From: a virus
Taxonomy: Duplodnaviria > Heunggongvirae > Uroviricota > Caudoviricetes
Length of the DNA: 64,000 nucleotides
Direction: 5' to 3' (one strand)
Virus record (IMG/VR): IMGVR_UViG_3300032007_000048
Coordinates: 1 to 64,000 of that record
The translations under genes and the position numbers were made by a program. Shown one piece after another: positions 1,069-18,366 of this stretch. Numbering within the stretch: the stretch's first letter is position 1; every line of letters starts with the position of its first letter. The notes below the pieces were generated by a model that was not told where the DNA came from, did not search any database, and saw only the letters and a program-made list of their open reading frames with translations.

Positions 1069-1084
1069 TGGCACGTTTTTTGTA
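1069..1084 (+). promoter_or_regulatory. sigma-54-like -24/-12 motif (TGGCACG-N4-TTGTA)
   Basis: tggcacgttttttgta lies 39 nt upstream of ATG 1123. Confidence 0.4.
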
Positions 1085-1122
1085 GATAGTGAACTACCAA
1101 TAAATTAAAAACTAAGAAAATT

Positions 1123-1380
1123 ATGGAGAAAAAGTTTTATCCGGTATTTAGTGTGGACATTTGTTTCACCGGTTATGCGATGCACTATGTTCTTATTGGT
1201 GCGGAGAGTGTGGAAGATTTGATTGCCCATATTCATGACATTCTAACAGATAATGACCTTGATTATGGTACTGTAAGTGTTGATGAACTTGCTTATGAGA
1301 CTTCTAGGTTTGAAGAAGTAAAGAATATGTACACTGATAAACCTTATGTTGTTCTTGACAGATATTCTTATTATGAATAA
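1123..1380 (+). CDS. hypothetical protein
   Basis: 85-aa ORF preceded by sigma-54-like motif at 1069..1084. Confidence 0.4.
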   Translation: MEKKFYPVFSVDICFTGYAMHYVLIGAESVEDLIAHIHDILTDNDLDYGTVSVDELAYETSRFEEVKNMYTDKPYVVLDRYSYYE

Positions 1381-1434
1381 TAAAAATTTAAAAGATAAGG
1401 ATTTATGAATAATAAAAATTTAAAAGATAAGGAT
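1373..1434 (+). repeat. 30-nt perfect direct repeat x2 (atgaataataaaaatttaaaagataaggat)
   Basis: Copies at 1373..1402 and 1405..1434. The first overlaps the stop of gene 1123..1380 out of frame; the second is the start of gene 1405..1650. Confidence 0.8.
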
Positions 1435-1650
1435 GTTAAAGTTGGATTGAGAATTAAATTCGCAATGCCAACAAAGTGGTGTCAGGTCGTTGACAGTTCC
1501 CCATTTATTTGGTTTAAAGGGAGAATTATTGAGCATCACAATGAAATGATTATAGTATGTGGTAAAAATAGGAAACACAAGATGTATCTTGATAGAATAA
1601 TGTGCTTTTCCAAAAACGGAGAATATCATAGAATAAAAAAACAAAAATGA
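1405..1650 (+). CDS. hypothetical protein
   Basis: 81-aa ORF; its first 30 nt are a perfect copy of 1373..1402. Confidence 0.4.
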   Translation: MNNKNLKDKDVKVGLRIKFAMPTKWCQVVDSSPFIWFKGRIIEHHNEMIIVCGKNRKHKMYLDRIMCFSKNGEYHRIKKQK

Positions 1651-2123
1651 TGGAAGAAGATTATGTAAGTTTTGAGATAGCCAAACTCTTGAAAGAGAAA
1701 GGATTTAAACGTTGGTGGTGTTATAAGAGTTATGGTACCGCGGTATATTATAAAGGTGTACCTTTAAGTGTTGATGAAGAATATGACCTAATATCAAAAG
1801 GTCATAAGAATGAAATTGAATACGTTGAAGGTGGGTATCTTTATGATTTCGGTAGTAACAATAATGATGATGACACGAAGGCATGGGCTGCTCCTACTCT
1901 TCAAAGGGCGATGAAATGGCTGAGGGAAATACATCATTACTATATTCAAGTAATGCTTGATTCTTGGGCTTGTGGAGGACATACAGGTTACTATGTTGTA
2001 ATTCAAAGAACTGACAATGATTTTGAAATGATGCTACAAGATGCTGTTGATGAGGTTTTTTATCAAACTTATGAGGAAGCCTGTGAAGCGGCAATTAGAT
2101 ATTGTTTAGAAAATTTGATTTGA
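1647..2123 (+). CDS. hypothetical protein, tandem paralog 1
   Basis: 158 aa. N-terminus MMEEDYVSFEIAKLLKEKGF and C-terminus YEEACEAAIRYCLENLI are shared with the next gene. Confidence 0.5.
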   Translation: MMEEDYVSFEIAKLLKEKGFKRWWCYKSYGTAVYYKGVPLSVDEEYDLISKGHKNEIEYVEGGYLYDFGSNNNDDDTKAWAAPTLQRAMKWLREIHHYYIQVMLDSWACGGHTGYYVVIQRTDNDFEMMLQDAVDEVFYQTYEEACEAAIRYCLENLI

Positions 2124-2125
2124 CT

Positions 2126-2509
2126 ATGATTGAAGAAGATTACGTTTCTTTCGAAACAGCCAAACTCCTTAAAGAAAAGGGGTTTGACATAATGGGTTAT
2201 GCCTCAATAAAAGTATTTGGTGGAAACACATATGAAGTAAACGAGGAATGGATAACTCCTACAGAAGACACTATAATTCCAACTCTCCAGATGGCAATGA
2301 AGTGGTTGAGGGAAATGCATCATATTGTCATTACGACAAATTATGCAAATATTTGTGGACTTGGATTTACATATGTCGCATCTGTTATTAAGATAAATGA
2401 CAATCATGAAATAGAAGAAGGCCCTGGTTTGAATGCTTGCATGTACGGTGCTTCTTATGAGGAAGCTTGTGAAGCAGCGATTAGATATTGTTTAGAAAAT
2501 TTGATTTAA
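2126..2509 (+). CDS. hypothetical protein, tandem paralog 2
   Basis: ORF track starts at 2102; the paralog alignment suggests the real start is ATG 2126 (MIEEDYVSFETAKLLKEKGF). The last ~55 nt are nearly identical to the 3' end of 1647..2123. Confidence 0.5.
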   Translation: MIEEDYVSFETAKLLKEKGFDIMGYASIKVFGGNTYEVNEEWITPTEDTIIPTLQMAMKWLREMHHIVITTNYANICGLGFTYVASVIKINDNHEIEEGPGLNACMYGASYEEACEAAIRYCLENLI

Positions 2510-2512
2510 AAT

Positions 2513-2749
2513 ATGTGTGATATTGAATTTCCGCATTTTGGCGCATCATATCCTGATGCCCATTGCATAGATGGTTATCTGTATGACATGGATTCTTATG
2601 AAAATGGTTTCTACACCATTGGTGGTGATGACCCATGTCCTTTTTGTAATACAGAGGAATGGTTAAAAGATGTTCTTGATGACGAAATCTTTGAGACAAA
2701 GGAAGAAGCACTTGAATGGGTAGAGAAAATGAGAAAAAAATATGAGTAA
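2513..2749 (+). CDS. hypothetical small Cys-containing protein
   Basis: 78-aa ORF with CPFC motif. Confidence 0.4.
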   Translation: MCDIEFPHFGASYPDAHCIDGYLYDMDSYENGFYTIGGDDPCPFCNTEEWLKDVLDDEIFETKEEALEWVEKMRKKYE

Positions 2750-2770
2750 TTGTCACAAAAATGATTAGTT

Positions 2771-2786
2771 TGGCATGAACTTTGTA
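2771..2786 (+). promoter_or_regulatory. sigma-54-like -24/-12 motif (TGGCATG-N4-TTGTA)
   Basis: tggcatgaactttgta lies 38 nt upstream of ATG 2824. Confidence 0.4.
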
Positions 2787-2823
2787 TGTATAGAAAAGTG
2801 TTATTTAAAAATAATGTGGAAAC

Positions 2824-3060
2824 ATGGTTACGGAAAAGCGATTAATATCTGTGTATAATAAGGTTCTTGAATATGAAAACAAATTATCAGGCGCATTGGG
2901 TGAACTTGGAAAACTTGTAAGTTCAATTTATGACGAGGAGATAACAGCAGACCTTTGTAACGATGGTGAGATAGAATTTCGCAAACTTTTTAGTCGTGAT
3001 GAAGATAAAATTGCTATTCGAATTGAAGATGTTATTGCAAAATTGAAGAAAATTGATTAG
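2824..3060 (+). CDS. hypothetical protein
   Basis: 78-aa ORF preceded by sigma-54-like motif 2771..2786; TAG stop. Confidence 0.4.
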   Translation: MVTEKRLISVYNKVLEYENKLSGALGELGKLVSSIYDEEITADLCNDGEIEFRKLFSRDEDKIAIRIEDVIAKLKKID

Positions 3061-3062
3061 TT

Positions 3063-3078
3063 TAGCACGGATTTTGTA
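3063..3078 (+). promoter_or_regulatory. sigma-54-like -24/-12 motif (TAGCACG-N4-TTGTA)
   Basis: tagcacggattttgta lies 35 nt upstream of ATG 3113. Confidence 0.35.
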
Positions 3079-3112
3079 AGTATGGAAAGTGTTTACAAAA
3101 AAAATATAAATT

Positions 3113-3400
3113 ATGACAATTAAAGACATTTTGGAACTTGGTTTTGGTATTGATTTTAATACCCTATCTTTCAATCTCATCAAAGATGATTTTGATAGTA
3201 AAACAACTGTAAACGATGTTAAGAACATGTTGGAAAACTACCCAATCACTATTTCTAAAGAGTACTTCAGTAAAGAGGACGAGGCTTTTGTTGATGAGGT
3301 GTTTGACCCTAATGATTTTATGATTGAAGATATGCTTGTACAACTATTTATTAGTGATGAAGATGAACTAAGTGATGAAGATGAACTAATCGACTGTTAA
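3113..3400 (+). CDS. hypothetical acidic protein
   Basis: 95-aa ORF preceded by sigma-54-like motif 3063..3078; acidic C-terminus. Confidence 0.4.
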   Translation: MTIKDILELGFGIDFNTLSFNLIKDDFDSKTTVNDVKNMLENYPITISKEYFSKEDEAFVDEVFDPNDFMIEDMLVQLFISDEDELSDEDELIDC

Positions 3401-3426
3401 AATTTGGAATATTAATAATTATTTTG

Positions 3427-3434
3427 TATATTTG
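3427..3434 (+). promoter_or_regulatory. Bacteroidetes-type -7 box TATATTTG with TTTG at -33 (3403..3406)
   Basis: ttttgtatatttgtaaaaaa is the reverse complement of the core of the minus-strand promoter element seen at 28580, 30311 and 31591. Confidence 0.4.
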
Positions 3435-3469
3435 TAAAAAAGATACTATTTATATATAAACATAGTATT

Positions 3470-3580
3470 TTTATAGAGGTGAAGGACTATAAAAATAAGA
3501 ATTATGGAAATCTAACGGATTGCAGTTATAGTATCCCTCCTTCACATTATGGTACTGACTGTTTTCCGTTTTTTTTTTAT
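3470..3580 (+). ncRNA. structured leader or small RNA candidate ending in a U-tract
   Basis: Long imperfect hairpin (gtgaagg...ccttcac outer stem 3479..3485 / 3539..3545, inner stem ctata/tatag), followed by a tttttttttt run at 3569..3579. It lies between the promoter at 3427 and the MTase start at 3613. Confidence 0.3.
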
Positions 3581-3612
3581 TGAAATTATTATACTAAAAA
3601 TGTTAAACAAAA

Positions 3613-4875
3613 ATGAAAACATTTAATAACCCAAACATCAAAGTTCCGCAGGGATTTGAACTCTTCTTCAACACTCTTACGGGTAATTGGGCACTCCGCC
3701 CCGTGAAGGGTTATTCTACCATCTACTATAAGAAGGATACATTTGTTCCGAAGAAGAAAGAAGAAGGGGCGAAAATCTTTTCCGAAGAAGAAGTAGAGGA
3801 GAAGAGCACAAGGAACTCCAATCTTACAAAGGCAAAGAAAGCAAAGAATGACGAATTTTACACTCGTCTTGCCGACATCGTGGATGAACTCAAACATTAT
3901 GAAGAACACTTTAAGGGTAAAGTAATCTATTGCCCTTGCGACAAGTTGTTCAATGAGGGACAGAGCAATTTCGGCAGGTATTTTATCTGCAAGTTTCATA
4001 AACTTGGGGTTAAGAAACTTATCTGTACCCAATGGAATCCCAATGGTGTCGGTGTGGTAAAGGAGTACGATTTTGAGAAGTGCGGAATCAAGTGGGAATA
4101 CAACGGAGAGAAAGAGGATAGTGAATATGTTGATGAAAGCGACATTGATACCTATTTCCTCAAGGGCAACGGCTCGTTTGATAGCGACGAGTGCAAGGAG
4201 ATTATGAGGAACTGCGACATCGTAGTAACGAATCCTCCGTTCAGTCTGTTCCGTCAGTTTGTGGAACAGATTATGACGATGGGTAAGAAATTCATCATTG
4301 TCGGCAACCACTCCGCAATCACCTATAAGGAGATTTTCCCTTACCTTAAAGACAATAAGATGTGGCTCGGCTACAAACCTCTCGGTGGAGAAATGTATTT
4401 CCACATTACTGACGAGTACAAGGAAGAAATCGTCAAGACGAAGAAAGAAGGAACTGGTTGGGTAGAGATTGGCGGAGAAGTTATGGCGAGGGTTACACAA
4501 GCTTGTTGGTTTACCAACCTTGAGCATAGCAAAAGAAGGGCGTTCATCGGCCTGACAAAGAAGTACAACCCTACTGACTATCCTAAATACGATAACTATG
4601 ATGCTATTGAGGTTGGCAGGGTTGAGGATATTCCGAAGGACTATGATGGGGTGATAGGTGTTCCTATTACTTATTTTGGCAAACACAATCCCAATCAATT
4701 TGAAGTCATTGGAATTACCGAAAAGTCTGAAGATATGAAGTCTCTATATATAGAAGGTAACGAAAAATATGATAGGCCATATCTAAATGGCAAAAGAATG
4801 ACTGCAAGGCTTCTCATTCGTAAGGTCAAAGAACTCCCTACAGAGGAAAAAGTAAAACCTCTGATGGAATCATAA
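3613..4875 (+). CDS. DNA amino-methyltransferase (N6-adenine or N4-cytosine), gamma-class like
   Basis: 420 aa. DIVVTNPPFS matches amino-MTase motif IV ((D/N/S)PP(Y/F) after a hydrophobic strand). Motif I is not clearly recognisable. Confidence 0.55.
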   Translation: MKTFNNPNIKVPQGFELFFNTLTGNWALRPVKGYSTIYYKKDTFVPKKKEEGAKIFSEEEVEEKSTRNSNLTKAKKAKNDEFYTRLADIVDELKHYEEHFKGKVIYCPCDKLFNEGQSNFGRYFICKFHKLGVKKLICTQWNPNGVGVVKEYDFEKCGIKWEYNGEKEDSEYVDESDIDTYFLKGNGSFDSDECKEIMRNCDIVVTNPPFSLFRQFVEQIMTMGKKFIIVGNHSAITYKEIFPYLKDNKMWLGYKPLGGEMYFHITDEYKEEIVKTKKEGTGWVEIGGEVMARVTQACWFTNLEHSKRRAFIGLTKKYNPTDYPKYDNYDAIEVGRVEDIPKDYDGVIGVPITYFGKHNPNQFEVIGITEKSEDMKSLYIEGNEKYDRPYLNGKRMTARLLIRKVKELPTEEKVKPLMES

Positions 4876-4933
4876 AATTTGGTACGATAATTGCAATATA
4901 CTTTATCAATATTAACAATTAAAATTTATTATT

Positions 4934-6319
4934 ATGACAAAGAGAAGAAAAAACATTGGTTTTTATGTTTATGAAGATTTTAACACTGATTCCGTTGCTA
5001 TTGAAGATAGGAATGACATTACCCTTGAGGAACTTGCAGAAGGGTACATTGACAATTCCGAAAACATTGAAGGAGGCGTTTTTGCGTGGAATGGCAAACT
5101 CAATATTCGTCCGAAATTTCAAAGAGCTTATGTTGTTGAAAATAATGAGGTGTGGAAGGCAGCTCTTGCGAGGAGTGTTGTTAACGGTCAACCAATAGGT
5201 ACAATCTATTTTGGTGAAACTGAAGAGGGTAAAAAGTATATCAATATTGATGGCCAACAGAGGCTTATGACCCTTCTATCATTCATTAACGGTCAAGATA
5301 CCATTAAAATGTTTGATGGAACAAAAGATAAAGATGTGATGTTTGAAGAACTTTCTGATAAAATGCAGAGAAGGTTTAAACTGTATCGACCGTCTATCAA
5401 GATTTGTAGAGGTACAGAAAAAGCACTCCTAGAGTGGTTCAAGACTATCAATCAACCCACAACTGTTCTTACCCCACAAGAACTGCGTAATGCTGCTTTC
5501 AATGGAATGTGGTGTGAACATATCAAGATGTATTTCTCAAAAGTCAAGGCATCTGCAACTGCAACTGAATATAATGCAGATTTTCTCTATAAGGGTGGCG
5601 AATATTTTTATGGTGATTTTTCCCTCCCTCTTGACCCTACAAGACAGGATGTTCTTGAAATGGCACTCGATTGGGCATCTATGCAAGTATTCGGTGTTAA
5701 TGCTGACCTTACAAAAGATGAACGAATTGAGTCTTATATGGCTATGTATGCGAACCCTGAAATATCTGTAAATGTTGAAGATAATGGAACTGACCTCGTT
5801 AATCGTTATAAGGCGGTTATAGATTGGGCAAGAAAGATGTTTTGTTCTGAGTATCTTGACCAAAAATGTGCAAAGAACGTTGAATGGGGTCGTCTTTATG
5901 CAACATATGGTGAAAATGAATATGACATCGTGAAACTCAATGCTGATGTTGACAAATATATTATGGATGAGGAAGTTACTGCTAACTCAGCTGTTTTTGA
6001 GTATGCATTGATGGGCTGCCCTATAGAGAAGCGCAGTATGCTTGTTCTCCGTTCTTTCAAAGTACCCGAAAAGATGAAGATGTATAAGATGCAGGGCGGA
6101 ATTGACCCCATTGATGGTTGTAAATATAAATTTGAAGATATGGATGCACATCACATTGTTGCGTGGGAAAATGGGGGTAAAACTGAAATTTCAAACGGCG
6201 TAATGATTTCCAAAACCAACCACAAGAAGGTTCTTCATGCAGAACTGACATATAATGCTGAACAGATTCGTCAGAAACGAGATGAACTTATTGAAAGGAT
6301 AAAATCCACCAAAAATTAA
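4934..6319 (+). CDS. DUF262/DUF1524 (GmrSD-like) nuclease
   Basis: 461 aa. The N-terminal DGQQR motif (NIDGQQRLMTLL) is typical of the DUF262 ParB-like domain. The C-terminal HHIVAWENGG...N...H HNH-like motif is typical of DUF1524. Confidence 0.65.
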   Translation: MTKRRKNIGFYVYEDFNTDSVAIEDRNDITLEELAEGYIDNSENIEGGVFAWNGKLNIRPKFQRAYVVENNEVWKAALARSVVNGQPIGTIYFGETEEGKKYINIDGQQRLMTLLSFINGQDTIKMFDGTKDKDVMFEELSDKMQRRFKLYRPSIKICRGTEKALLEWFKTINQPTTVLTPQELRNAAFNGMWCEHIKMYFSKVKASATATEYNADFLYKGGEYFYGDFSLPLDPTRQDVLEMALDWASMQVFGVNADLTKDERIESYMAMYANPEISVNVEDNGTDLVNRYKAVIDWARKMFCSEYLDQKCAKNVEWGRLYATYGENEYDIVKLNADVDKYIMDEEVTANSAVFEYALMGCPIEKRSMLVLRSFKVPEKMKMYKMQGGIDPIDGCKYKFEDMDAHHIVAWENGGKTEISNGVMISKTNHKKVLHAELTYNAEQIRQKRDELIERIKSTKN

Positions 6320-6333
6320 AAACAATAAAGCAT

Positions 6334-6681
6334 ATGAAAGAAGAACAAAGAAGAAGAATTGCAAGAGAATATCTTGAAAAAAATTTTGGTAAGTATGGTG
6401 TAAGATTTTACTCTTTTAATGATGTCACACTGCCTATTAGTAAACCACCATTTGAACTTTGGAAATGTTATGAATCAATGGAACCAGGTTCTTGGGAATC
6501 AAGGGCATTTCGTGTTATTGACGCTCCTTATATATCAAATTCAAGTAATCCTGTTATAATTGTTTCTGACAACAAAGAAGAGTTGTTTGAAATCGCTAAA
6601 ATCGTTATTTCCGAAGAAAGATGGGAAACGGGTTCACCTGAATTTGATAGATTTAAAAACTACTATGTTATGTTTGATTAA
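6334..6681 (+). CDS. hypothetical protein
   Basis: 115-aa ORF; last gene of the block before terminator 6704..6737. Confidence 0.45.
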   Translation: MKEEQRRRIAREYLEKNFGKYGVRFYSFNDVTLPISKPPFELWKCYESMEPGSWESRAFRVIDAPYISNSSNPVIIVSDNKEELFEIAKIVISEERWETGSPEFDRFKNYYVMFD

Positions 6682-6703
6682 AAATATTACTATTTAATAA
6701 TAA

Positions 6704-6737
6704 AAGCCGTAGATGTTTATTCTACGGCTTTATTTTT
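6704..6737. terminator. bidirectional intrinsic terminator between convergent blocks
   Basis: Stem agccgtaga / tctacggct with 7-nt loop, flanked by A-run and T-run. Confidence 0.6.
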
Positions 6738-6796
6738 AAAAGGGACTCTACAAATGCTATATATTATTTTGGGGAAAACAGTATACTCGTTTACAC

Positions 6797-7507
6797 CTAG
6801 TTATCCTGTTTAGCAATAAAAGCGAACCTATAACAATTGGCACCTTTGTGATTGATGTCGTTTTTCTCATAGAAAGAAGGTGATGTGCCTTCCATTGGAA
6901 CGCAGAAGTCACCTGCTGTAAGTCCATTATACAACTCACAAGTTCCGCCTTTAACAAAGTTTCTCTCAAATGCTTTCACATCAGCGATGTCCTCATCGTC
7001 AAGACCGCTGTAATCACCGTTGACAAGTGCGTTTAATGCCCACTCAGGGACAATGACATCATAATAGTTTTCACCGAATTTTGAAAGTTCCTCATCTGAG
7101 ATGTTATCAAATTGGTTTCCACTAAGGAAATCCTCATTAATCACCTCAGTGAGACATTCCTTGATAAGCGAGTTAAGTTTAGACTCAGACACCCTGATTT
7201 TAGACTCATTAAAGTAACCGTCAGAGGGTTGGAAATTTCCGTATTGTTCTTGGTATTCCCTGTTCAATTTGTCGGCATATTTCCAAGCGATTTCCTCGTT
7301 GTTTGTTGTTTTGATGATATCAAAATCGTCTATGGTATAGGATTTGTTCTCAATATATCTGCCGTTAGCGTCAAACATATCAGATGACAAGACATTATAA
7401 GTGCCACCGTCATCCACCACATAATATCTCACTAAAGATTCTTTTAGGATTTTTTTGACGGATTCCATTACCATATATTGTATATCGTTTTCAGTGAACT
7501 TTGCCAT
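6797..7507 (-). CDS. hypothetical protein carrying the shared N-terminal motif
   Basis: 236 aa. N-terminus ENDIQYMVMESVKKILKE matches the recurrent motif (see findings). Confidence 0.5.
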   Translation of the reverse strand: MAKFTENDIQYMVMESVKKILKESLVRYYVVDDGGTYNVLSSDMFDANGRYIENKSYTIDDFDIIKTTNNEEIAWKYADKLNREYQEQYGNFQPSDGYFNESKIRVSESKLNSLIKECLTEVINEDFLSGNQFDNISDEELSKFGENYYDVIVPEWALNALVNGDYSGLDDEDIADVKAFERNFVKGGTCELYNGLTAGDFCVPMEGTSPSFYEKNDINHKGANCYRFAFIAKQDN

Positions 7508-7508
7508 A

Positions 7509-8225
7509 CTAGTTACCCATTAAATAAACATTTATTTGTGACGCGTAGATTTGCATTTGTTTGATAACATCCCTTGATGTTGGTGTTATCCCATCTTCAT
7601 TGGTTTTGAAAATCACACCCAAACAAGCGGTTGGCAAACCGTTTTTACCATGCATGACAAACATACCCATGTAGGCGACATCCTCATTTTTAAGCCTGTA
7701 ATACAGTTCAGGGTCACTTTCCATACAGTCCTCAATAGGACCGAACCAATAACCGTGTTCTATGACATATGATGCCCATGGGTATCTTGATAGTCTGAAA
7801 TTCTTATATTCGGACTCAATATAGTCATATCTGTTTCTTGGGTCCATATAAGTAAGGTCTGCATATAAAAACGGAAGATTGTTAAGGTTTGTGCCACCAT
7901 TGTGTGCCTCAAGAATATATGCCCTGTCAGCGTTGACTGATGTCCTGAAATCAGCAAGAAGAACACGTATATGTGGGTCTGCCTCCAATCTTTGTTTTAT
8001 TCCTTCCTCGTGTTTTTCGATATTGTACTCTTGGAATTTCTCAAAAACAACGCCAGGATTAAGAACGAAAAAACCTATACAAGCGGCCACAAACATTATG
8101 AGTAATGTTGAGAATGTGCCTTTCAAACCATGTTTGTCAATAAAACCCCTGAAGCTTCTCATGTTACCAATTTGCTCGTCCATTTGCTCATTGGTGGTTT
8201 TCATTTTGTTATAAATCTCTTCCAT
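7509..8225 (-). CDS. hypothetical membrane-anchored protein
   Basis: 238 aa; one predicted N-terminal TM helix (FSTLLIMFVAACIGFFVL). Confidence 0.45.
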   Translation of the reverse strand: MEEIYNKMKTTNEQMDEQIGNMRSFRGFIDKHGLKGTFSTLLIMFVAACIGFFVLNPGVVFEKFQEYNIEKHEEGIKQRLEADPHIRVLLADFRTSVNADRAYILEAHNGGTNLNNLPFLYADLTYMDPRNRYDYIESEYKNFRLSRYPWASYVIEHGYWFGPIEDCMESDPELYYRLKNEDVAYMGMFVMHGKNGLPTACLGVIFKTNEDGITPTSRDVIKQMQIYASQINVYLMGN

Positions 8226-8445
8226 ATTTCTTAACTATTAATGCTTGTATACCAATTATTGTTAAAATAAGGGCTACCAACACTATTATGCCCAAAACAG
8301 GTTTAGCACTTATAAGCATACCCACCAAGAAAAACAACGTGAAAATAATGCCAAGTGTCGCCACACAGATTAAAAGGTTTCTCAAAAACTTTTTCCAACC
8401 GATACCTTTAAAAAAACCAACCAAAAATTTAAAAAATCTCTTCAT
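8209..8445 (-). CDS. small two-TM membrane protein (holin-like candidate)
   Basis: 78 aa with two hydrophobic helices. The holin assignment is only by size and topology. Confidence 0.35.
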   Translation of the reverse strand: MKRFFKFLVGFFKGIGWKKFLRNLLICVATLGIIFTLFFLVGMLISAKPVLGIIVLVALILTIIGIQALIVKKYGRDL

Positions 8446-8446
8446 A

Positions 8447-9331: not shown

Positions 9332-9346
9332 TTTATTACATTTTTA

Positions 9347-9999: not shown

Positions 10000-11233
10000 T
10001 ACTTTTTTTAATCATGTTCTTATGGTCATACGCAGGGTCTTTTTTCCTTTTGAGAGGCGGTGCGTCATATCCAAAATCACCGAAGGCCGTATCCATCTCA
10101 ACCGCTTCTTTCAGTTTGTCAACTTGCTCTTGCGTTAAATAAACCGTTTTTCTTTTTATGGGTTTACCAAAGAGAGGTTGTACAAAAGCACCTGAGGCAT
10201 CAGCGGATGTGGCACCACCACCATCCTCTTCTGTCATCATGTCCTCTTGTTGTACGGGCATAATGTCTTTTTTATATTTAATATCAGACAAATCATTGAA
10301 CGCTTTTTTCAAAGTTGACTTCATTTCTTTTTTGTTATCCCATTGATTCAACCAGTCATTGTTGTGGTACAATCCTTTTAACTGTTCTTTCGCAAAATCA
10401 ATTGCCTGACTACACTCATCACTAAAAATCAGTTCATCTTCCTTATATTTCGTAATAAAATCAATTAATACACCCAGTTTAGCCCAAATATTATTAGCGT
10501 CCTGTTCTTGTTGTATGTCAGCCATCATTTTTTTGAGACTTTCAATGCCAAAAGCACTTTGGTAATCAAGTGCGGAGTCATTTTGTAATATTCCTGTTCC
10601 CCACGCTCCTTCCGTTATAGGTTCTGTTGACACCGTTAAATCATAGACATCATCAAGTGTGTCAATATTAGTCTTGTCAATATAAACATTATTGTTTTTG
10701 GATAGTTTCTTTATGTCTTTTCCGATTTTGATAAGTTCATCTGACAACCCCCAACCGTTTTTTCCAAACTCATAGGTAATTTTATTGTTGTTTGTTTTTT
10801 TTATGATTTTTGAGTCAAGAGTGTTGGCGTTCATCTCATTTAAAGTGTTACCGTCAATAATATGTGATTCGAAAGCGTTAATGTAAAGGTTTCTCATCTT
10901 TTTCATATAATCTTTCCTTGGTAACTTGTATTTGATGACAAATCTGTCTTTGGGTTTAACGCCGTTGTTAATATCTTCCTCTGACAGTTTCTGAGGTCTG
11001 ATTTTCTCAGTTCTGATAAGAACCGCGCTTGTCTCATCGGATGGGTCTGTTCTTTTAAGTAACAAAGACAACGCCTTGGGGGAATCAATGTTGTGTTTTG
11101 TGAGATATGAGTCAACCTTGGCTGTTTTGGGGTCAGTCAAGAGTTGTTTGATATACGATTCCATATGTGATATGAAACCGTATCTTGTCATCTCGTCCTC
11201 AGGATAATATGTCTCTATTAACAACTTTTCCAT
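9986..11233 (-). CDS. hypothetical protein
   Basis: 415-aa ORF; no motif recognised. Confidence 0.5.
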   Translation of the reverse strand: MEKLLIETYYPEDEMTRYGFISHMESYIKQLLTDPKTAKVDSYLTKHNIDSPKALSLLLKRTDPSDETSAVLIRTEKIRPQKLSEEDINNGVKPKDRFVIKYKLPRKDYMKKMRNLYINAFESHIIDGNTLNEMNANTLDSKIIKKTNNNKITYEFGKNGWGLSDELIKIGKDIKKLSKNNNVYIDKTNIDTLDDVYDLTVSTEPITEGAWGTGILQNDSALDYQSAFGIESLKKMMADIQQEQDANNIWAKLGVLIDFITKYKEDELIFSDECSQAIDFAKEQLKGLYHNNDWLNQWDNKKEMKSTLKKAFNDLSDIKYKKDIMPVQQEDMMTEEDGGGATSADASGAFVQPLFGKPIKRKTVYLTQEQVDKLKEAVEMDTAFGDFGYDAPPLKRKKDPAYDHKNMIKKSIENE

Positions 11234-11235
11234 AA

Positions 11236-11487
11236 TTAAATATTATTGTTCCAAGTTTGACTTCTTTGCCACAATGTCTTGAATAGGTTCTCAACTGATT
11301 TGGCGACAATTTTCTTAATCTCTTTTTCAATGTCCTTATCTTTTTTGACAGCATCAAGAGTGATGTCTTTGACTTCTTTTTTAAATTCCCTGTTTTTAAG
11401 GATGTCATCAACACCAGATTCATTTATGATACCCTCAGATACCAATCTTTTTGCCATTGATTCAGATATTATTATTTTTTTTGCCAT
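11236..11487 (-). CDS. hypothetical small protein
   Basis: 83-aa ORF; first gene of the minus-strand block. Confidence 0.4.
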   Translation of the reverse strand: MAKKIIISESMAKRLVSEGIINESGVDDILKNREFKKEVKDITLDAVKKDKDIEKEIKKIVAKSVENLFKTLWQRSQTWNNNI

Positions 11488-11596
11488 AAAACAATATATT
11501 TTTACTATGATAAATAGTCCAATGGTTTGAAAAAGAACATAAAATAGTTGTTTTTTTGAGTTTTATTTTGTATTTTTGCTAAAAATAAAATGCCTT

Positions 11597-11612
11597 TGGC
11601 ATGTTTTTTGTA
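11597..11612 (+). promoter_or_regulatory. sigma-54-like -24/-12 motif (TGGCATG-N4-TTGTA)
   Basis: tggcatgttttttgta lies 27 nt upstream of ATG 11639. It is one of five copies. Confidence 0.4.
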
Positions 11613-11638
11613 AATAAAAACAGCAAAAAATATAAAAC

Positions 11639-13231
11639 ATGAAAAATTTGTTTAAAATATCGGAAGGTAGTAATCCTAACTATCTGGCAACCATTTGCCG
11701 TATTGGTGAAACGTTCCCTATTGAGGGTGCTGACAGACTTCTCAGAACCACTGTTAACGGTGCTGACATTGTTATTGGTAACACAATGAAAACCAATGAT
11801 ATTGTGGTTTATGTACCTGTGGAAAGCGCGCTTTCTGAAAAGTTTTTGTCGGCCAACAATCTTTATGAGATTGGTGAATGGGAGAAAAATGCTAACGCTC
11901 CTGAAATTGGTATTATGATGGCGAAATACAATGACCTCAAAAACACCGGAAAAACCGATGAGGCTGACGAACTTTACAAGGAAATTAAGTCACAAGTCGG
12001 TTACTTTAACAAAAGGAACAGGGTAAGGATTATCACTCTTAGGGGTTGTGTTTCCAACGGTTTTATCGCAGGTGTTAACTCACTTGTCAACTATAATCCT
12101 GACCTTGCTGATGTTAATTGGGAGGAAATGGTTGGAACCTCATTTAATTATATTGGTGATGATGAATTTTGTAAAAAGTATATTCCACCAATTAAGACTT
12201 CTGAACAGAATACAGGACAGAAAGGTTTTAATAAGAGGATGAAGAAAATTAAGAGGTTTGATAAACTGGTCGAAGGTCAATTCACCTATCATTATGACAC
12301 ACAGCGTATTGATTCAACCAATATTAAGGGATTGCTTTCACCGGAGGATATTGTTACCATAACAGTCAAGGTCCATGGAACATCAGTAATTTTGTCCAAT
12401 ATTCTTGTTAATAAAAAACTTACTTTTTTTGAAAGAGTTAAGAAGTTTTTCGGTATGAATGTAAAAACAACTGAATATGGTAACATTTATTCAAGTAGGT
12501 CTGTAATTAAGAACAGATATATAACAGGTAAGGACAGTAATGATTTCTACGGTGTTGATATTTGGGGTTGTGTGAACAGGGATTTTTCACCTTATCTTTC
12601 AGAGGGTATGACTGTGTATGGTGAGATTGCAGGTTATCTTGAAGGGTCGGACAAGATGATACAGAAACGTCATGACTATGGTTGTGAGGTTGGACATTGG
12701 AAGTTTATGCCTTATCGTATAACTGAGACGGATGCCAATGGTAATGTTAAGGAATGGAATGTGCTTGATGTTGACAAGTGGACAAGAAACCTTGTTGCCG
12801 AACACCCTGAACTTAGTGACAAGGTTCTTAATCTTGAAGTGCTTTACCACGGTAAACTTTGTGATTTGTATCCTGACATTGTGGTTGACGACATGTGGTA
12901 CGACAATTTCCTTACAAGACTGCACAACGATGACAATTTCTATATGGAGCAAAAAGAGCCTATGTGTCATTTGTATGAAAAGGAAGCACTTGCGGCTAAG
13001 GCTGTTCTTGACAATGCCAAAAAGAAAGGCGAAAGTAAGAAAGTGATTTCAAAATTGACCAAGGACTATGAGAAATATGAGTCAATGAGGGCACCAAGAG
13101 AGGGTGTTGTCATTAGGATTGATGATGACCCTAAGTCTGAGGCTTTTAAAGTTAAAACTAATCTCCACTACGGATTAGTTGAATGTGCACAACATGATGC
13201 AGGTGAAGTTGATATTGAGGAGACAGCGTAA
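11639..13231 (+). CDS. ATP-dependent RNA ligase, Rnl5/DraRnl-like
   Basis: 530 aa. Motif I KVHGTS (the KxHG variant seen in the Deinococcus DraRnl family), motif III-like VYGEIAG, motif V-like REGVVIRID. There is an extra N-terminal domain. Confidence 0.55.
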   Translation: MKNLFKISEGSNPNYLATICRIGETFPIEGADRLLRTTVNGADIVIGNTMKTNDIVVYVPVESALSEKFLSANNLYEIGEWEKNANAPEIGIMMAKYNDLKNTGKTDEADELYKEIKSQVGYFNKRNRVRIITLRGCVSNGFIAGVNSLVNYNPDLADVNWEEMVGTSFNYIGDDEFCKKYIPPIKTSEQNTGQKGFNKRMKKIKRFDKLVEGQFTYHYDTQRIDSTNIKGLLSPEDIVTITVKVHGTSVILSNILVNKKLTFFERVKKFFGMNVKTTEYGNIYSSRSVIKNRYITGKDSNDFYGVDIWGCVNRDFSPYLSEGMTVYGEIAGYLEGSDKMIQKRHDYGCEVGHWKFMPYRITETDANGNVKEWNVLDVDKWTRNLVAEHPELSDKVLNLEVLYHGKLCDLYPDIVVDDMWYDNFLTRLHNDDNFYMEQKEPMCHLYEKEALAAKAVLDNAKKKGESKKVISKLTKDYEKYESMRAPREGVVIRIDDDPKSEAFKVKTNLHYGLVECAQHDAGEVDIEETA

Positions 13232-13434
13232 TGAAGAGAATAGTTAAATATACCGCAGTTGACCCTTATTATAGTGACCAAACATTGACTTATATTGGTT
13301 CGAACGCCGAAGAAATTGATAATATTCAATTTGAAACCGAAAAACACATGGCAAGGGAACATTGTAGTTTGTCAATGATATATAAATTAGAAATAATTTT
13401 TGACAATTCTGAAATTTTCTGTCATGATTTTTGA
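13231..13434 (+). CDS. hypothetical small protein
   Basis: 67-aa ORF; start overlaps the stop of the ligase gene. Confidence 0.3.
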   Translation: MKRIVKYTAVDPYYSDQTLTYIGSNAEEIDNIQFETEKHMAREHCSLSMIYKLEIIFDNSEIFCHDF

Positions 13435-13448
13435 ATGTACTAAAAATA

Positions 13449-13491
13449 ACAATAAAAACTAATAAAACTAAAACAATAAAAACTAATAAAA
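13449..13491. repeat. 18-nt direct repeat caataaaaactaataaaa x2 in intergenic region
   Basis: Copies at 13449..13466 and 13474..13491. Confidence 0.5.
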
Positions 13492-13494
13492 GCA

Positions 13495-14010
13495 ATGCGA
13501 CAAAAACTAATACTTACAGATGAGCATATCAAATTAATCAAGGCGATTAAATTTGATGAGTTTGACATGGGTGAGAATTTTAACACTGAGTTCATCACCA
13601 ATTCAATAGAAGAGATTGAGTCCACACCTGAAAACATGAAAAAGTATGGTCAGTTAAGAGACCAACTGATTAGGGCAAGGGACAAGATGAAAACCATATC
13701 TGATTTGAAGGAGTGTCATGCGTGGGGTGTTGACCAATGGAACCTTTTTGGTGGTACATATGTCATGGAAGATGTGGCTATGATTCTTGGACATTATGAG
13801 GATTTTATTGAAGGCACAGAGGAAAGTCCCATGGGCAAGCAATATCCCAAGGAATTGGAAGACCACTGGTGGGAGTTATATCTTTATATTGTTGCCAACA
13901 TGAAAAACATATTGTCTTTAATATTGGAATATGTTAATAAGGGTGGTTTGACACCAGGTGAGTATGTGTTTGACAATAAAAGTTATTCTTGGAAAAAAGT
14001 GGTGAACTAA
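13495..14010 (+). CDS. hypothetical protein
   Basis: 171-aa ORF. Confidence 0.45.
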   Translation: MRQKLILTDEHIKLIKAIKFDEFDMGENFNTEFITNSIEEIESTPENMKKYGQLRDQLIRARDKMKTISDLKECHAWGVDQWNLFGGTYVMEDVAMILGHYEDFIEGTEESPMGKQYPKELEDHWWELYLYIVANMKNILSLILEYVNKGGLTPGEYVFDNKSYSWKKVVN

Positions 14011-14011
14011 C

Positions 14012-14431
14012 ATGATATTACTGATAATTTTAATTGTTTTTGCTTTGTTTTGCCTTTGGGGGCTAATCAAAGTGTGTAAAGATAATGACGGTGCTATACC
14101 TTTTTTAATGTATTTTTGTATTATCTCTTTTTTCGTTTTTGGTTTTACAATTAATGGTTTGACCAATAATAATTCGGAACTAACATCTTTTAGGTTAGAA
14201 TATAAAAAAGTGGAATATCTGATTCAAACATATGACAAGGAAAAAGACGAAAAGGGAGACATTTTGTTTGATATTAAAAAACATGTTGATAATATCAACA
14301 GAAGGATAACACAAGAACAAAAAGGACTAAATAGAGTATTGGTAAAAGAGATGTATGTTAAAGAAATCGCTGAGACAGAACCAATAAAGTTTGATTTTAA
14401 TAATTTAATAAAAGAAGATAAACATGAGTGA
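14012..14431 (+). CDS. hypothetical membrane protein
   Basis: 139 aa; N-terminal TM helix, coiled-coil-like remainder. Confidence 0.4.
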   Translation: MILLIILIVFALFCLWGLIKVCKDNDGAIPFLMYFCIISFFVFGFTINGLTNNNSELTSFRLEYKKVEYLIQTYDKEKDEKGDILFDIKKHVDNINRRITQEQKGLNRVLVKEMYVKEIAETEPIKFDFNNLIKEDKHE

Positions 14432-14723
14432 AATTTGTGGAAGTGAAAAAATTGAGGGAAAATGCCCTAATGCTGAATCCCATTTGAAGAAAATGTGTAT
14501 TAACTGTATTTCATGTGATTGCACAAGTGAAGGTGAACATTTCTGTGCTAACGAACAGAATTTAAGTGATGCTGTTGAAAAACTTAAAGCGAATGTTCCA
14601 CCTGGTTATGCAATAGAAAATGTTGAACTTAAACCACTTGCGCTGAAAGACATCACAAAAAAATGTAAGAGGTGGTCAATAGACAAGCAAAAAGTTTTGG
14701 ATGAGTTTGATGCGCTGGTATAG
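14424..14723 (+). CDS. hypothetical Cys-rich protein
   Basis: 99 aa with CPNAESH...CINCISCDC...C cysteine cluster. Confidence 0.4.
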   Translation: MSEICGSEKIEGKCPNAESHLKKMCINCISCDCTSEGEHFCANEQNLSDAVEKLKANVPPGYAIENVELKPLALKDITKKCKRWSIDKQKVLDEFDALV

Positions 14724-15060
14724 TTTTTGCGGTAGTTTAATTGTTATATCTCTATTTTTCCCTAATAATTATCATTGGATAAGGGAAAGTCAAAATCCTT
14801 ATGGTAAAATTGTTTATACGATTGACCGTAATTTTATTAGAAAAGGTGAAACAATTTGGGGAAAAATAGAGTATAATATAGACGGAAAATATATTAGAGA
14901 GGGACAGACTTCTTACGGTAAAATTTTATATAATATAGATGGAAAATATATTAGAAAGGGTCAAAACCCTTATGGTAAAATTTTATATAATATAGATGGA
15001 AATTACATCAGAGAAGGCCAAACCTCTTATGGCAAAATTTTGTTTAATTTAAGTAAATAA
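14701..15060 (+). CDS. repeat protein (five 20-aa YGKILYNIDGKYIR.GQ repeats), signal/TM N-terminus
   Basis: 119 aa. Hydrophobic N-terminus, then tandem 20-residue repeats encoded by 60-nt DNA repeats. Confidence 0.45.
   Translation: MSLMRWYSFCGSLIVISLFFPNNYHWIRESQNPYGKIVYTIDRNFIRKGETIWGKIEYNIDGKYIREGQTSYGKILYNIDGKYIRKGQNPYGKILYNIDGNYIREGQTSYGKILFNLSK
14797..15045 (+). repeat. tandem repeat, 60-nt period, about 4 copies, coding
   Basis: The unit ccttatggtaaaattttatataatatagatggaaaatatattagaaagggtcaaaac is repeated with minor variation. Confidence 0.7.
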
Positions 15061-15078
15061 TTTTTTAAATTTTTATAT

Positions 15079-15942
15079 ATGGACATTAAGACTATTAAAG
15101 GGAATCTTATTGAGAGGAGTGACACACTTGCAAGGTATTTTAGGGAAATCAATAAATATCCCGTACTTTCAGCGGAGGAGGAGTATGACCTTATACTTAA
15201 AATAAAAAATGGGGACAATGAGGCGAAAGAAAAACTCATAAACAGTAATCAGAGATTTGTTGTGGCTATTGCGAAAAGGTATGCCAACAACGATAACATC
15301 ATGGATTTAATTGACGAGGGTAACCTCGGTCTTATGTCAGTCATAAATGATATTGACAAATATGATACTACTAAGGGAACAAGGTTTTTGTCATATGCTG
15401 TTTGGTACATCAGGAGAAGTATTCAGTATTACATAATGAACACCAATATGTTTGTCAGAAGAACAAACAACATTAAATTGGGTAACAAAATGACCAAGGT
15501 TAAAAACAAGTATTTTGGTCTTAATGGCAGGTATCCAACCGAAGATGAGATAATTGATATGTTGAAAAAAGATTTTGACATCACAATACTCAAACAGAGT
15601 GATGTGTTTGACATCACAACTGAGTCAGTTAATGAGTACATTGACGAAGACCAGAACACTTTGGAAGACACTAAAGCATTTACTGACAAAACCGCAAGTT
15701 ATAATGAGTATGAGGAGACAATTGACAAGGAATATACCAAAACACTTGTCAGCAAATTGTTGTCCATGCTTAATGAAAGAGATAGAACAATAGTCAAAAT
15801 GTACTTTGGCATTGGTTATGACAAAGAGTATAATAACTATGAAATCGGTGAGGAACTTGGACTGACATCGGAAAGGATTAGGCAAGTTATTAATGATGTG
15901 ACTAAAAAGTTGCATAGGGCACTTAGTTTTGTTAAAGTCTAA
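15079..15942 (+). CDS. RNA polymerase sigma-70 family factor
   Basis: 287 aa. Region 2 DLIDEGNLGLMSVINDIDKYDTTKGTRFLSYAVWYIRRSIQYYI and a region-4 HTH (YEIGEELGLTSERIRQVINDVTKKLHR). Confidence 0.8.
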   Translation: MDIKTIKGNLIERSDTLARYFREINKYPVLSAEEEYDLILKIKNGDNEAKEKLINSNQRFVVAIAKRYANNDNIMDLIDEGNLGLMSVINDIDKYDTTKGTRFLSYAVWYIRRSIQYYIMNTNMFVRRTNNIKLGNKMTKVKNKYFGLNGRYPTEDEIIDMLKKDFDITILKQSDVFDITTESVNEYIDEDQNTLEDTKAFTDKTASYNEYEETIDKEYTKTLVSKLLSMLNERDRTIVKMYFGIGYDKEYNNYEIGEELGLTSERIRQVINDVTKKLHRALSFVKV

Positions 15943-15981
15943 ACTATTTATTAAAAAATAAGCGACAAAAAAACCGAAACA

Positions 15982-16722
15982 ATGCAACGCATTATACTAA
16001 CAGAAAAACAATTAAACAAAATAATTACAGATTCTTTAGCGAAAATTTTAAAAGAAAATAGCGGTTGTTTTGTGAAATTAACTTTTGATAAAATTTCCAC
16101 CATTACTTACCAAAACAATAAATCCACACAAATAAACGAAGAAAGTAACTGGATATTAAAATCTAAAAATTGGGAAAAGAACAATTATGAGAGATTTCTT
16201 TCAATTGTTAATATGACACCTAAAAAATATAAAGGTTATCTCACATATCATGGTTTAGATGAGATTAAAGGTAATGATTGGATAACATACACATTGAAAG
16301 GACATAATGTCGCTTTTGCTTTACATTACATAGAACCAGGAAAAATTGATTTGTGTAATTTTGTTAACAACTCCGATTTAAAAGGAATTGGTGATTTGGT
16401 TCTGCAATTTGCCAAAAACCAAGGTGCGACACAAATGGACAACTATAGGGGCTTTCCATCTGAAAAAGACCCTGAAGGACATGGCAAACTTGGAAATCTA
16501 TATAGGAGAAACGGTTTCAATAAACAAACATGGCATGATGAGTTTAATCCTGAATTTCAACCTGCTGACGAAGAATGGCAGTTAGACAAATCAAATTTCC
16601 AAAATGGAAAAGGTCCTGATGTGGAAGGTTTGGAATTGTCAAGACATAGAGCGAAATATAATAACCCGCAAAGAGCATATAGAAAAAAATTTGATGATAG
16701 AATTGGTAGTAAATTTAAATAA
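15982..16722 (+). CDS. hypothetical protein with shared N-terminal motif
   Basis: 246 aa. N-terminus ILTEKQLNKIITDSLAKILKEN. Confidence 0.45.
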   Translation: MQRIILTEKQLNKIITDSLAKILKENSGCFVKLTFDKISTITYQNNKSTQINEESNWILKSKNWEKNNYERFLSIVNMTPKKYKGYLTYHGLDEIKGNDWITYTLKGHNVAFALHYIEPGKIDLCNFVNNSDLKGIGDLVLQFAKNQGATQMDNYRGFPSEKDPEGHGKLGNLYRRNGFNKQTWHDEFNPEFQPADEEWQLDKSNFQNGKGPDVEGLELSRHRAKYNNPQRAYRKKFDDRIGSKFK

Positions 16723-16728
16723 TATAAC

Positions 16729-17430
16729 ATGAGAAATATTGTTTTGAACATACCACATAGTTCAATTAACGGTGTGTATGACAAGAACTTTGGTAAATGG
16801 CAATGTAACCCATATTTTATGGATGATTGTCTTAAGAAATGGACAGATTGGTATACTGATATGCTGTTTAACCCTCTGTCAAGAAAAGAAAACGTGGAAA
16901 CCATTGTTTTTCCTTACTCACGCTTTGTTTGTGATGTCGAAAAACTTAAGAATGACCCTTTGGAAAATATTGGTCAGGGCATTATATATACCGAATTTGA
17001 CGGTTATAAACGTAACTTGACTGAAGAACAAAAGAAAAACATAATGGAACTTTGGGAAGAACACCAGGCAAATCTTCAGACAGCGATTAAGGACGAAAAT
17101 ACAGTTCTTATTGATTGTCACTCTTTTCCAAGTTACTTGGCTAACAATGACATTTGCATTGGGTATAATGAAGACTGGTCATATAACAAGAAACTTGTTG
17201 ATGGTATTGTAAAAAAATTTAAAAAGCAAGGTTATTCAGTTGAGGAAAATATACCTTATTCTAATTCCATTACACCTGAAAAAAATTTCTCATATTGTTC
17301 TGTAATGATTGAGGTTAATAAGCGTATATATATGAACGAAAACCTGATGGTTTTGGAAAAAAACGCAAGACAATGGATGAGGTGGAGCGGAACTTTGGAA
17401 AAAATTTATGATTTTATTCAAAATTTTTAA
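16729..17430 (+). CDS. N-formylglutamate amidohydrolase-family zinc hydrolase (putative)
   Basis: 233 aa. NIPHSSING and LIDCHSFPS resemble the two conserved His motifs of the FGase family. Confidence 0.4.
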   Translation: MRNIVLNIPHSSINGVYDKNFGKWQCNPYFMDDCLKKWTDWYTDMLFNPLSRKENVETIVFPYSRFVCDVEKLKNDPLENIGQGIIYTEFDGYKRNLTEEQKKNIMELWEEHQANLQTAIKDENTVLIDCHSFPSYLANNDICIGYNEDWSYNKKLVDGIVKKFKKQGYSVEENIPYSNSITPEKNFSYCSVMIEVNKRIYMNENLMVLEKNARQWMRWSGTLEKIYDFIQNF

Positions 17431-17434
17431 TTTT

Positions 17435-17450
17435 TGGCACGGTTGTTGTA
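17435..17450 (+). promoter_or_regulatory. sigma-54-like -24/-12 motif (TGGCACG-N4-TTGTA)
   Basis: tggcacggttgttgta lies 52 nt upstream of ATG 17502. Confidence 0.4.
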
Positions 17451-18362: not shown

Positions 18363-18366
18363 AAAC

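Follow-up and report, generated by a model that had tools for sequence, protein, structure and literature searches.

Candidate sigma-54-type core promoters precede gene cassettes on the genome of a probable Bacteroidota phage

Introduction

Positions 1 to 64,000 of the IMG/VR virus record IMGVR_UViG_3300032007_000048, a tailed-phage (Caudoviricetes) genome segment of 64,000 bases and 34% GC that is called the window below, carry a recurrent −24/−12 element, TGGCAYG-N4-TTGTA, in front of genes and operons of their left part, and we propose that these elements are core promoters that are probably read by host sigma-54 on a Bacteroidota phage genome. Among bacterial sigma factors, only sigma-54 is considered unable to start transcription without an ATP-driven, enhancer-bound activator, and its holoenzyme normally needs an AAA+ enhancer-binding protein (EBP) positioned at an enhancer. 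To our knowledge, phages have almost never been reported to depend on this factor, and a literature search of limited scope gave no description of sigma-54-type promoters as a class on Bacteroidota phages. Sigma-54 promoters themselves are well known; what appears new is the enhancer-less sigma-54-type core promoter as a phage promoter class.

An initial annotation of the window had taken five copies of the element for a separate regulatory class, driven either by host sigma-54 with an EBP or by a phage factor of similar specificity. A separate −24/−12 class, with host sigma-54 as its simplest reader, is supported here by the intergenic placement of the sites, their conservation in relatives, a matrix built from host-phylum groES promoters, and their recurrence in other phages.

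Results

Seven intergenic, co-oriented sites in the window

When at most one mismatch was allowed, TGGCAYG-N4-TTGTA was matched seven times in the window against 0.81 expected (standard deviation 1.0), and none of 100 dinucleotide shuffles reached seven; a looser pattern gave 10 matches against 2.7 expected. All five copies reported by the initial annotation are present on the plus strand at the positions given there, four of them exact and that at 3063 with one mismatch (TAG for TGG), and two further sites had been overlooked, one at 4880(+), which surfaced only after the pattern was relaxed to TGGYAYG-N4-TTGYA, and an ambiguous one at 28604(−). A motif search with orientation, as the initial annotation had proposed, placed 7/7 of these sites in intergenic sequence, each pointing towards the gene that follows it, whose ATG lies 26-51 nt past the end of the motif, although intergenic sequence makes up only 4,078 of the 64,000 bases (6.4%, by a hand-curated gene map). 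The gaps of the five plus-strand copies (38, 37, 34, 26 and 51 nt) agree with the 27-52 nt stated originally, but the distance is merely narrow and not constant as had been claimed. The sole other match with one mismatch, 45954(−), lies within a gene and is probably due to chance. All sites fall within the left 29 kb, none in the right 35 kb, and none in the 10 kb beyond the right end (L208; L numbers denote loci).

In their internal structure, the seven sites have the geometry of sigma-54 promoters. GG is found at −24/−25 in 6/7 sites (AG at 3063), CA(C/T)G follows the GG, or the AG at 3063, in 6/7 sites (TACG at 4880), and the two blocks are spaced by 4 nt in 7/7 sites, which gives GG-N10-G(C/T). 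The −12 base, for which C is canonical, is T in 6/7 sites and C at 4880 only.

The strongest site (22.4 bits, the window's best, with the groES matrix described below) is the exact match TGGCACG-TTTT-TTGTA at 1069..1084(+), in extended form cattTTGGCACG, which stands 38 nt before a cassette of five small open reading frames (ORFs; 1123-2749) that include two phrog_12005 paralogs. The exact match TGGCATG-AACT-TTGTA at 2771..2786(+) (16.9 bits) lies 37 nt from the ATG at 2824 of a 78-aa ORF and has a G one base past a 10-nt spacer, close to the expected start position. At 3063..3078(+), TAGCACG-GATT-TTGTA (one mismatch, weakened −24 block, 16.1 bits) overlaps the stop codon of the preceding gene and lies 34 nt from the ATG at 3113 of a 95-aa ORF; its flanks (gattagtt...TTGTA.gtat.gaaagtgtt) resemble those of 2771, and 3063 therefore looks like a duplicated 2771 cassette. 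The site at 4880..4895(+), TGGTACG-ATAA-TTGCA (TGGTACGATAATTGCA, 14.4 bits), has the canonical −12 GC and lies 38 nt from the ATG at 4934. Two further exact matches precede operons: TGGCATG-TTTT-TTGTA at 11597..11612(+) (20.6 bits), 26 nt before the RNA-ligase gene and with a TATTTTTG box at 11571, 20 nt upstream of it, and TGGCACG-GTTG-TTGTA at 17435..17450(+) (21.8 bits), 51 nt before a DUF932 gene, where it heads the operon 17502-20895. On the minus strand, CGGCACG-ATTT-TTGTA (CGGCACGATTTTTGTA) at 28604-28589 (one mismatch, 18.3 bits) lies 30 nt from the ATG at 28558 and is followed by the gene 28558-28334 and then by the HD/kinase and RlaP genes. A weak extra candidate, TGGCACACTTATTGAT at 19242..19257(+) (16.9 bits), is located within the uninterrupted ORF 19021-19701 and is probably a chance match or an internal site. 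Several of the motif sites directly follow the stop codon of the preceding gene. As judged from gene content alone (small ORFs, anti-restriction-like and RNA-repair genes), we infer that the motif-headed cassettes may be expressed early.

The sites match sigma-54 promoters of the host phylum

In Bacteroidota, sigma-54 drives a chaperone and envelope regulon (PMC9723704, PMC12316311). In the transcription start map of Flavobacterium psychrophilum, the motif SM4, which was assigned to sigma-54, precedes groES-groEL, lon, clpB, a dnaK set and remF, and mutagenesis of the remF copy confirmed the conserved bases (PMC9723704). We fetched 80 Bacteroidales groES loci with a GroES query that is 99% identical to a Bacteroidaceae protein, and found [T/A]GG[C/T]A with a correctly spaced G upstream of groES in 77/80 of them. 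This way of selecting sites fixed GG, A and the −13 G in the matrix derived from them; that 77/80 loci passed the filter is nevertheless informative in itself. The 77 sites gave the consensus TTTGGCAC(G/A)nTTTTnG(C/T)(A/T), and their flanks agree with the phage motif, with TTT ahead of GGCA and a spacer rich in T.

A log-odds matrix made from the 77 groES sites of the host phylum alone was scanned on both strands of the window. The phage sites were top-ranked, 1069, 17435, 11597 and 28604(−) taking ranks 1-4, 2771 and 3063 ranks 6 and 7, and 4880 rank 10. Seven window matches reached 16 bits or more against 0.4 in Markov shuffles, and the sites span 14-22 bits.

The initial annotation had further regarded the uniform T of the −12 element as a deviation from the RpoN consensus, and this view did not hold. 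Although C at −12 is reported to be conserved in 96% of bacterial sigma-54 promoters (PMC4551910), the −12 base of the 77 Bacteroidales groES sites is C in 39, T in 28, A in 8 and G in 2, and in five F. psychrophilum SM4 promoters whose starts were mapped it is T, A, A, T and T (PMC9723704), so TTGTA is ordinary in this phylum; nor is T uniform in the window, since 4880 has C. Common to the phage sites and the Bacteroidota sigma-54 regulon promoters are the −24 TTGGCA(C/T), the spacing, the T-rich spacer and a −12 G with a variable next base, and by sequence the phage motif is indistinguishable from the sigma-54 promoters of the host phylum. They differ in what they precede, the phage sites standing before cassettes of unknown function and nucleic-acid-metabolism genes on a virus genome. 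With the canonical proteobacterial promoters (TGGCACG-N4-TTGCW; glnAp2, pspA), which work with an enhancer and an AAA+ EBP, the phage sites share the GG-N10-G geometry, the TGGCAYG block and the co-oriented upstream position, but in place of the C at −12 that is reported for 96% of bacterial sigma-54 promoters (PMC4551910) they have T in 6/7, and they come without a detectable enhancer or activator gene.

The motif is retained in relatives while its surroundings change

Conservation in related phages, on which the initial annotation had made its reading depend, was observed in L005, L293, L006 and L297. Relatives were retrieved from IMG/VR and from metagenomes. The window's copy before the RNA-ligase gene, TGGCATGTTTTTTGTA, corresponds to TGGCATGATTTTTGTA in L005, where the protein is 96% identical, to TGGCACGATTTTTGTA in L293 (90%) and to TGGCACGAATATTGTA in L006 (67%), so that the Y and N4 positions vary among these relatives and both blocks are fixed. 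In an alignment of three phages, the similarity starts precisely at cTTTGGCA, and the flanks upstream of it are unrelated. The 17435 site is identical in L001, and the L002 ortholog of the gene behind it has a related TGGTATGATTTTTGCA about 270 nt upstream. The left arm of L297, whose proteins are ~59% identical, has four co-oriented sites, of which one ends in TTGCT and one is new; the ortholog of 1069 is found there at 1280 as TGGCACGTTTTTTGTT, and that of 2771, at 6098, is identical. For site 4880, no relative of the GmrSD-like gene behind it was found in IMG/VR. Because the blocks are kept while the flanks diverge and the cassettes differ among relatives, the motif appears to behave as a portable "promoter plus cassette" unit.

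The motif recurs in unrelated phages

An exact scan of IMG/VR for TTTGGCACG-N4-TTGTA returned at least 119 stretches, many of which proved to hold several more sites when they were scanned with looser fixed-spacing patterns and with the host matrix. The 81 additional sites that were not forced by the search pattern have C in 42, T in 21 and A in 18 cases at −12 among the matches listed, and the 4-nt spacing is also invariant in the other-phage sites, which were gathered with fixed-spacing patterns. The motif forms strand-pure arrays, with 19/0 sites in 8.4 kb of a 302-kb contig (L116), 7/0 in L083 (a 361-kb contig), 7/0 in L107 and 5/0 in L073, and several stretches of a 217-kb contig (L024/L035/L039/L047/L091) carry same-strand sites. 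On the jumbo-phage contigs among these (L116, L083, L107 and the 217-kb contig), many small genes each have their own sigma-54-type site. In L116, L035 and L024, most sites stand 31-40 nt before an ATG, two stand at 10-14 nt, and one L116 site has no ORF in range; in L116, GT(G/A) occurs ~10 nt after most sites, near the distance expected for a sigma-54 start. When L035 and L116 were compared with phages by blastn, no informative relative emerged.

A different arrangement was found in sample 3300045988, in which contigs of 7-11.7 kb (L021, L052, L068, L101, L121 and L124) have 2-4 tandem TTTGGCACG-N4-TTG(C/T) copies at their ends. In five contigs of ~10.7-11.7 kb, these ends are terminal inverted repeats with the motifs pointing inward, and complete 11.7-kb phi29-like genomes have 3-4 tandem copies per terminal inverted repeat. 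L068 is a phi29-like podovirus with a protein-primed PolB, a phi29-type capsid protein, a connector and a gp16 ATPase, and a Pfam search of 10 of its ORFs together with tblastn over the complete locus revealed no sigma, RNA-polymerase or EBP gene. Since no transcription genes were found in these phi29-like genomes, a host reader is indicated. Collectively, unrelated phages share the motif, the motif equals the host consensus, and L068 has no room for machinery of its own, so that host sigma-54 would be by far the simplest reader.

No activator gene or enhancer was found

The initial annotation had recognised no EBP gene in the window, and our searches agree. A regular-expression search of the six-frame window translation gave no GAFTGA or RpoN-box peptide, and when NtrC, PspF and the C-terminus of RpoN served as tblastn queries, no homolog appeared in the window, L208 or ~1 Mb of motif-bearing loci. 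The only AAA protein, encoded at 32700-33863(−), was considered as a hidden activator and was rejected, as it matches the classical AAA type (AFG2/Rpt) and not PF00158. An IMG/VR scan for EBPs with two peptide patterns placed 0/80 listed of 105 loci, by contig name, on a motif-rich contig; because only two patterns were scanned, this absence is weak evidence. Many of the IMG/VR phage contigs that do encode an NtrC/PspF-like protein (L191-L205 and others) carry one canonical TGGCACGAAGGTTGCTT ~170 nt past the EBP gene, so that activator and promoter may form a self-contained pair. On those contigs a single site accompanies an activator of the phage's own, whereas in the window and its relatives the sites are numerous and no activator gene was found.

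Upstream of the seven sites, no k-mer is shared beyond background within 220 nt. The groES promoters, by contrast, have TGTC repeats at approximately −17, −27, −38, −49 and −59 relative to the TGG, with an 11-nt period, which form a candidate regulator array. TGTC occurs within −35 to −8 in 50% of groES promoters and in 12% of phage sites, compared with 8% in a control interval. With neither a shared upstream k-mer nor a TGTC array, the phage sites would therefore be bare core promoters.

One ambiguous site overlaps a sigma-A-type promoter

According to the initial annotation, the rest of the genome uses TAnnTTTG boxes of the sigma-A type. Such boxes do precede about a dozen window genes, but a third motif, ACTATTTAT, is also over-represented. 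The overlap of site 28604(−) with a sigma-A-type TTTG-N19-TATATTTG promoter makes it ambiguous, and it may be a sigma-A promoter or a dual promoter. It belongs to the repeat family D5, whose minus-strand direct repeats at 27056, 28580, 30315 and 31594 carry a sigma-A-type TTTG-N19-TA(t/a)ATTTGTAA; the D5 copy at 28580-28615 also scores as a sigma-54-type site, and in the 92%-identical copy at 31594-31629 neither the GG nor the −13 G is present. At 1069, 2771, 3063, 4880, 11597 and 17435, TAnnTTTG with a TTTG 19-21 nt further upstream is out of register. A sigma-A reading was accordingly dropped for these six sites, in which the TA of TAnnTTTG is out of register, and kept for 28604(−).

A phage sigma factor and a third motif

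The gene at 15079-15942(+), which the initial annotation had overlooked, encodes a 287-aa sigma-70-family sigma factor with regions 1.2, 2 and 4 (Pfam; phrog_351, 1.6e-47; PDB SigA/RpoS, 3e-33) and lies inside the operon 11639-17430, at whose head the 11597 site stands. The 217-kb contig encodes a 47%-identical homolog at L024 2597-3430(−), downstream of same-strand motifs.

The ACTATTTAT motif gave 12 matches in the window against 1.6 expected. Sites of the form (a)ACTATTTAT(a) are found in the window at 3445, 11518(−), 15943, 21124, 35979, 47740, 55052 and 55366, and elsewhere in L208 at 7180(−) and 10472(−), L002 at 1030(−), L003 at 1126/1096(−) and L004 at 4138(−). They sit 30-40 nt before the ATGs at 11487(−), 15982, 21163, 36020 and 55401 and before large L208 genes, are kept in L002, L003 and L004, and precede large structural-looking genes; ACTATTTAT is a candidate promoter class for the phage sigma. 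The site at 3445 falls in a 212-nt non-coding gap (3401-3612), where hairpins and a T-run come after it. Folding of 3460-3585 gives −28.5 kcal/mol (z = −2.5), Rfam has no match, and the gap is a candidate locus for a small RNA. Scans of the window for tRNAs and Rfam families gave no matches.

The location of the sigma gene in a motif-headed operon and of ACTATTTAT before large genes suggests a cascade, in which a sigma-54-type promoter would yield the phage sigma, which would in turn use the ACTATTTAT promoters before structural-looking genes. The cascades of SPO1 (gp28, then gp33/34) and T4 (gp55) are alike in that a phage sigma gene lies in an operon of one promoter class and another motif precedes structural-looking genes. 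Their upstream class is of the primary-sigma type, whereas the one proposed here is sigma-54-type and the phage sigma would be tied to ACTATTTAT by inference only.

Gene content and probable host of the window

The RNA ligase encoded at 11639-13231(+), at the head of the operon 11639-17430, forms an RNA-repair set together with an RlaP nucleotidyltransferase (25806-27023(−)) and an HD + P-loop kinase protein (27130-28365(−)) that is polynucleotide-kinase-like. The two RNA-repair operons (RNA ligase; RlaP and HD/kinase) are headed by two motif sites, one of which is the ambiguous one. The rtcBA RNA-repair operon of E. coli is likewise sigma-54-dependent. An EcoRI-type adenine methyltransferase (3613-4875; Pfam, 6.6e-110) adjoins a GmrSD_N+HNH nuclease-like protein (4934-6319(+), by Pfam domains, with the next gene at 6334-6681), and the two are likely players in phage-host restriction conflicts.

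The TnpB-like transposase at 21163-22323 (phrog_506, 6e-117) is followed 3′ by a GC-richer stretch of 123 nt (22324-22446) that is possibly a guide RNA region; an insertion sequence element in a phage genome could aid host identification. The window also encodes a superfamily-1 helicase, an exonuclease and the DUF932 protein, as well as two large proteins, one of 1,578 aa with BACON domains and one of 2,035 aa with a GH2 module. The genes at 23223-25247(−) and 31666-32649(+) are paralogs made of 78-nt (26-aa) repeats, inverted and ~8 kb apart, whose repeat arms reach 450 nt at 79% identity; they may encode variable surface or receptor-binding proteins.

The best protein matches, at ~30-34% identity, are to Bacteroides phages DAC/SJC03, Chryseobacterium phage MA9V-3, Prevotella Lak megaphages and human faecal phage contigs. 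These matches and the BACON domains indicate a host in the Bacteroidota, probably in the Bacteroidales. The phage is probably one of gut or rumen Bacteroidales. A megablast search with the first 20 kb of the window retrieved no near-identical phage deposited in INPHARED, and the protein encoded at 94-417 in the left flank has no match on record.

Discussion

We propose that host RNA polymerase with sigma-54 would bind (T)TTGGCAYG-N4-TTG(T/C)A and that transcription would start ~11-12 nt downstream of the T/C. Within the left ~20 kb, each site would then drive one compact transcription unit, a cassette or an operon, namely the small ORFs of unknown function, the GmrSD-like nuclease, the RNA-ligase operon and the DUF932 operon. 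Since no EBP or upstream site was found, one of three routes for opening the closed complex would be required: a host activator might act from solution without a nearby enhancer, a phage protein that we did not recognise might open the complex, or the non-consensus −12 element might reduce activator dependence. With respect to the last route, non-consensus −12 sequences correlate with activator-bypass transcription (PMC4551910).

Several observations weigh against host sigma-54 as the reader. Sigma-54 is described as strictly activator-dependent, and yet no EBP homolog was found in the window, L208 or the ~1 Mb of motif loci; upstream of the seven sites no k-mer is shared beyond background, and the TGTC array of host groES promoters is absent. 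In the host matrix, the selection of its sites fixed the GG, the A and the −13 G, 3063 carries AG in place of GG, and 28604(−) is better explained as a sigma-A promoter. In L294 and L295, the 58%-identical RNA-ligase orthologs lie inside an operon and lack the site, and among the closest cultured phages checked, the motif was not found in MA9V-3 (100 of 103 kb), SJC03 (first 50 kb) or the faecal contig MT835470 (30 kb).

The alternative that a phage factor reads the motif, either the sigma at 15079-15942 or a protein that we did not recognise, appears improbable. The window does encode its own sigma, a homolog of which occurs among same-strand motifs in L024, and a sigma-70-type reader would need no EBP, in keeping with the failure to find one. 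But the two blocks are 4 nt apart, compared with the ~17-nt (16-19) spacing of −35 and −10 elements, and no further block is conserved 17 nt downstream, which is a misfit with sigma-70-family recognition. In addition, the sigma gene is itself downstream of a motif site, the motif-bearing phi29-like genomes have no homolog of it, L003/L006 retains the motif although its syntenic stretch holds no sigma homolog, and a matrix from host promoters alone retrieves the sites. A little less probable again is that sigma-54 binds at sites that are not productive, which would act as roadblocks or insulators or would titrate the factor away from the chaperone and envelope regulon. Even when no activator is present, the holoenzyme forms stable closed complexes, and at the sites it occupies it can act as a repressor or competitor (PMC4551910); such a role would be in line with the lack of a detected EBP or upstream activator site, the placement of sites immediately after preceding stop codons, and the tandem arrays in terminal repeats. 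The narrow distance to the ATG and the strict co-orientation speak for productive promoters, however, as do several cassettes without any other recognisable promoter; and the terminal-repeat arrays were the only promoter-like candidates noticed in the phi29-like phages, where other types were not searched.

Very little weight falls on the remaining two explanations. If the motif were a regulator binding site or a signal for recombination at module junctions, with a coincidental likeness to sigma-54 promoters, it would be understandable that homology between relatives begins exactly at the motif, marking module boundaries, and that the cassettes differ among close relatives. Against this, the motif is asymmetric and constantly oriented relative to genes, it agrees with the host matrix in both blocks, in spacing and in flanks, and it recurs in unrelated phage types; promoters are in any case common at the boundaries of mosaic modules. 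Equally unlikely is that the sites are variants of sigma-A promoters, in which TTTGTA would end the −7 box and the TTTG before GGCA would be the −33 box. Several sites do hold TTTG followed by TA, and 28604(−), a member of a sigma-A-type repeat family, is the case that suits this idea, but the TA of TAnnTTTG is in register at 0/6 main sites, 17435 has no TTTG at all, and the final block is TTGCA or TTGCT at 4880 and at many sites of other phages. Host sigma-54 is therefore kept as the probable reader of the motif.

Among phages with known promoters, the virulent Pseudomonas phage YuA offers a likeness, in that it has a sigma-54-like promoter, P015, of the host type (Ceyssens et al. 2008, cited in PMC10914365). 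As described there, YuA has one such region in addition to a sigma-70-like promoter and a phage-specific promoter motif, whereas the window has 6-7 sites in 29 kb that make up a class of their own, and related and unrelated phages of the Bacteroidota type carry up to 19 in 8.4 kb. A more far-reaching proposal, which is possible although we regard it as doubtful, is that at least three unrelated lineages use bare, enhancer-less sigma-54 core promoters as their principal class, with the complex opened by a route that has not been described, such as an unrecognised phage activator, a host activator in solution or activator-independent initiation that the relaxed −12 element of the phylum would permit. 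These lineages, all apparently infecting Bacteroidota, would be ~90-kb phages like the present one, jumbo phages with genomes of 217-360 kb and the phi29-like phages, whose genomes measure ~11.7 kb.

If host sigma-54 does read the motif, a sizeable group of Bacteroidota phages, probably from gut, rumen and environmental sources, uses this factor for whole gene classes, and rpoN or its activators would be predicted as host factors for infection. The phages would then give a handle on sigma-54 activation in Bacteroidota, where the −12 C is relaxed, and the motif would provide a sequence signature for transcription units and host assignment in uncultured phages as well as compact candidate promoters for Bacteroidota genetics.

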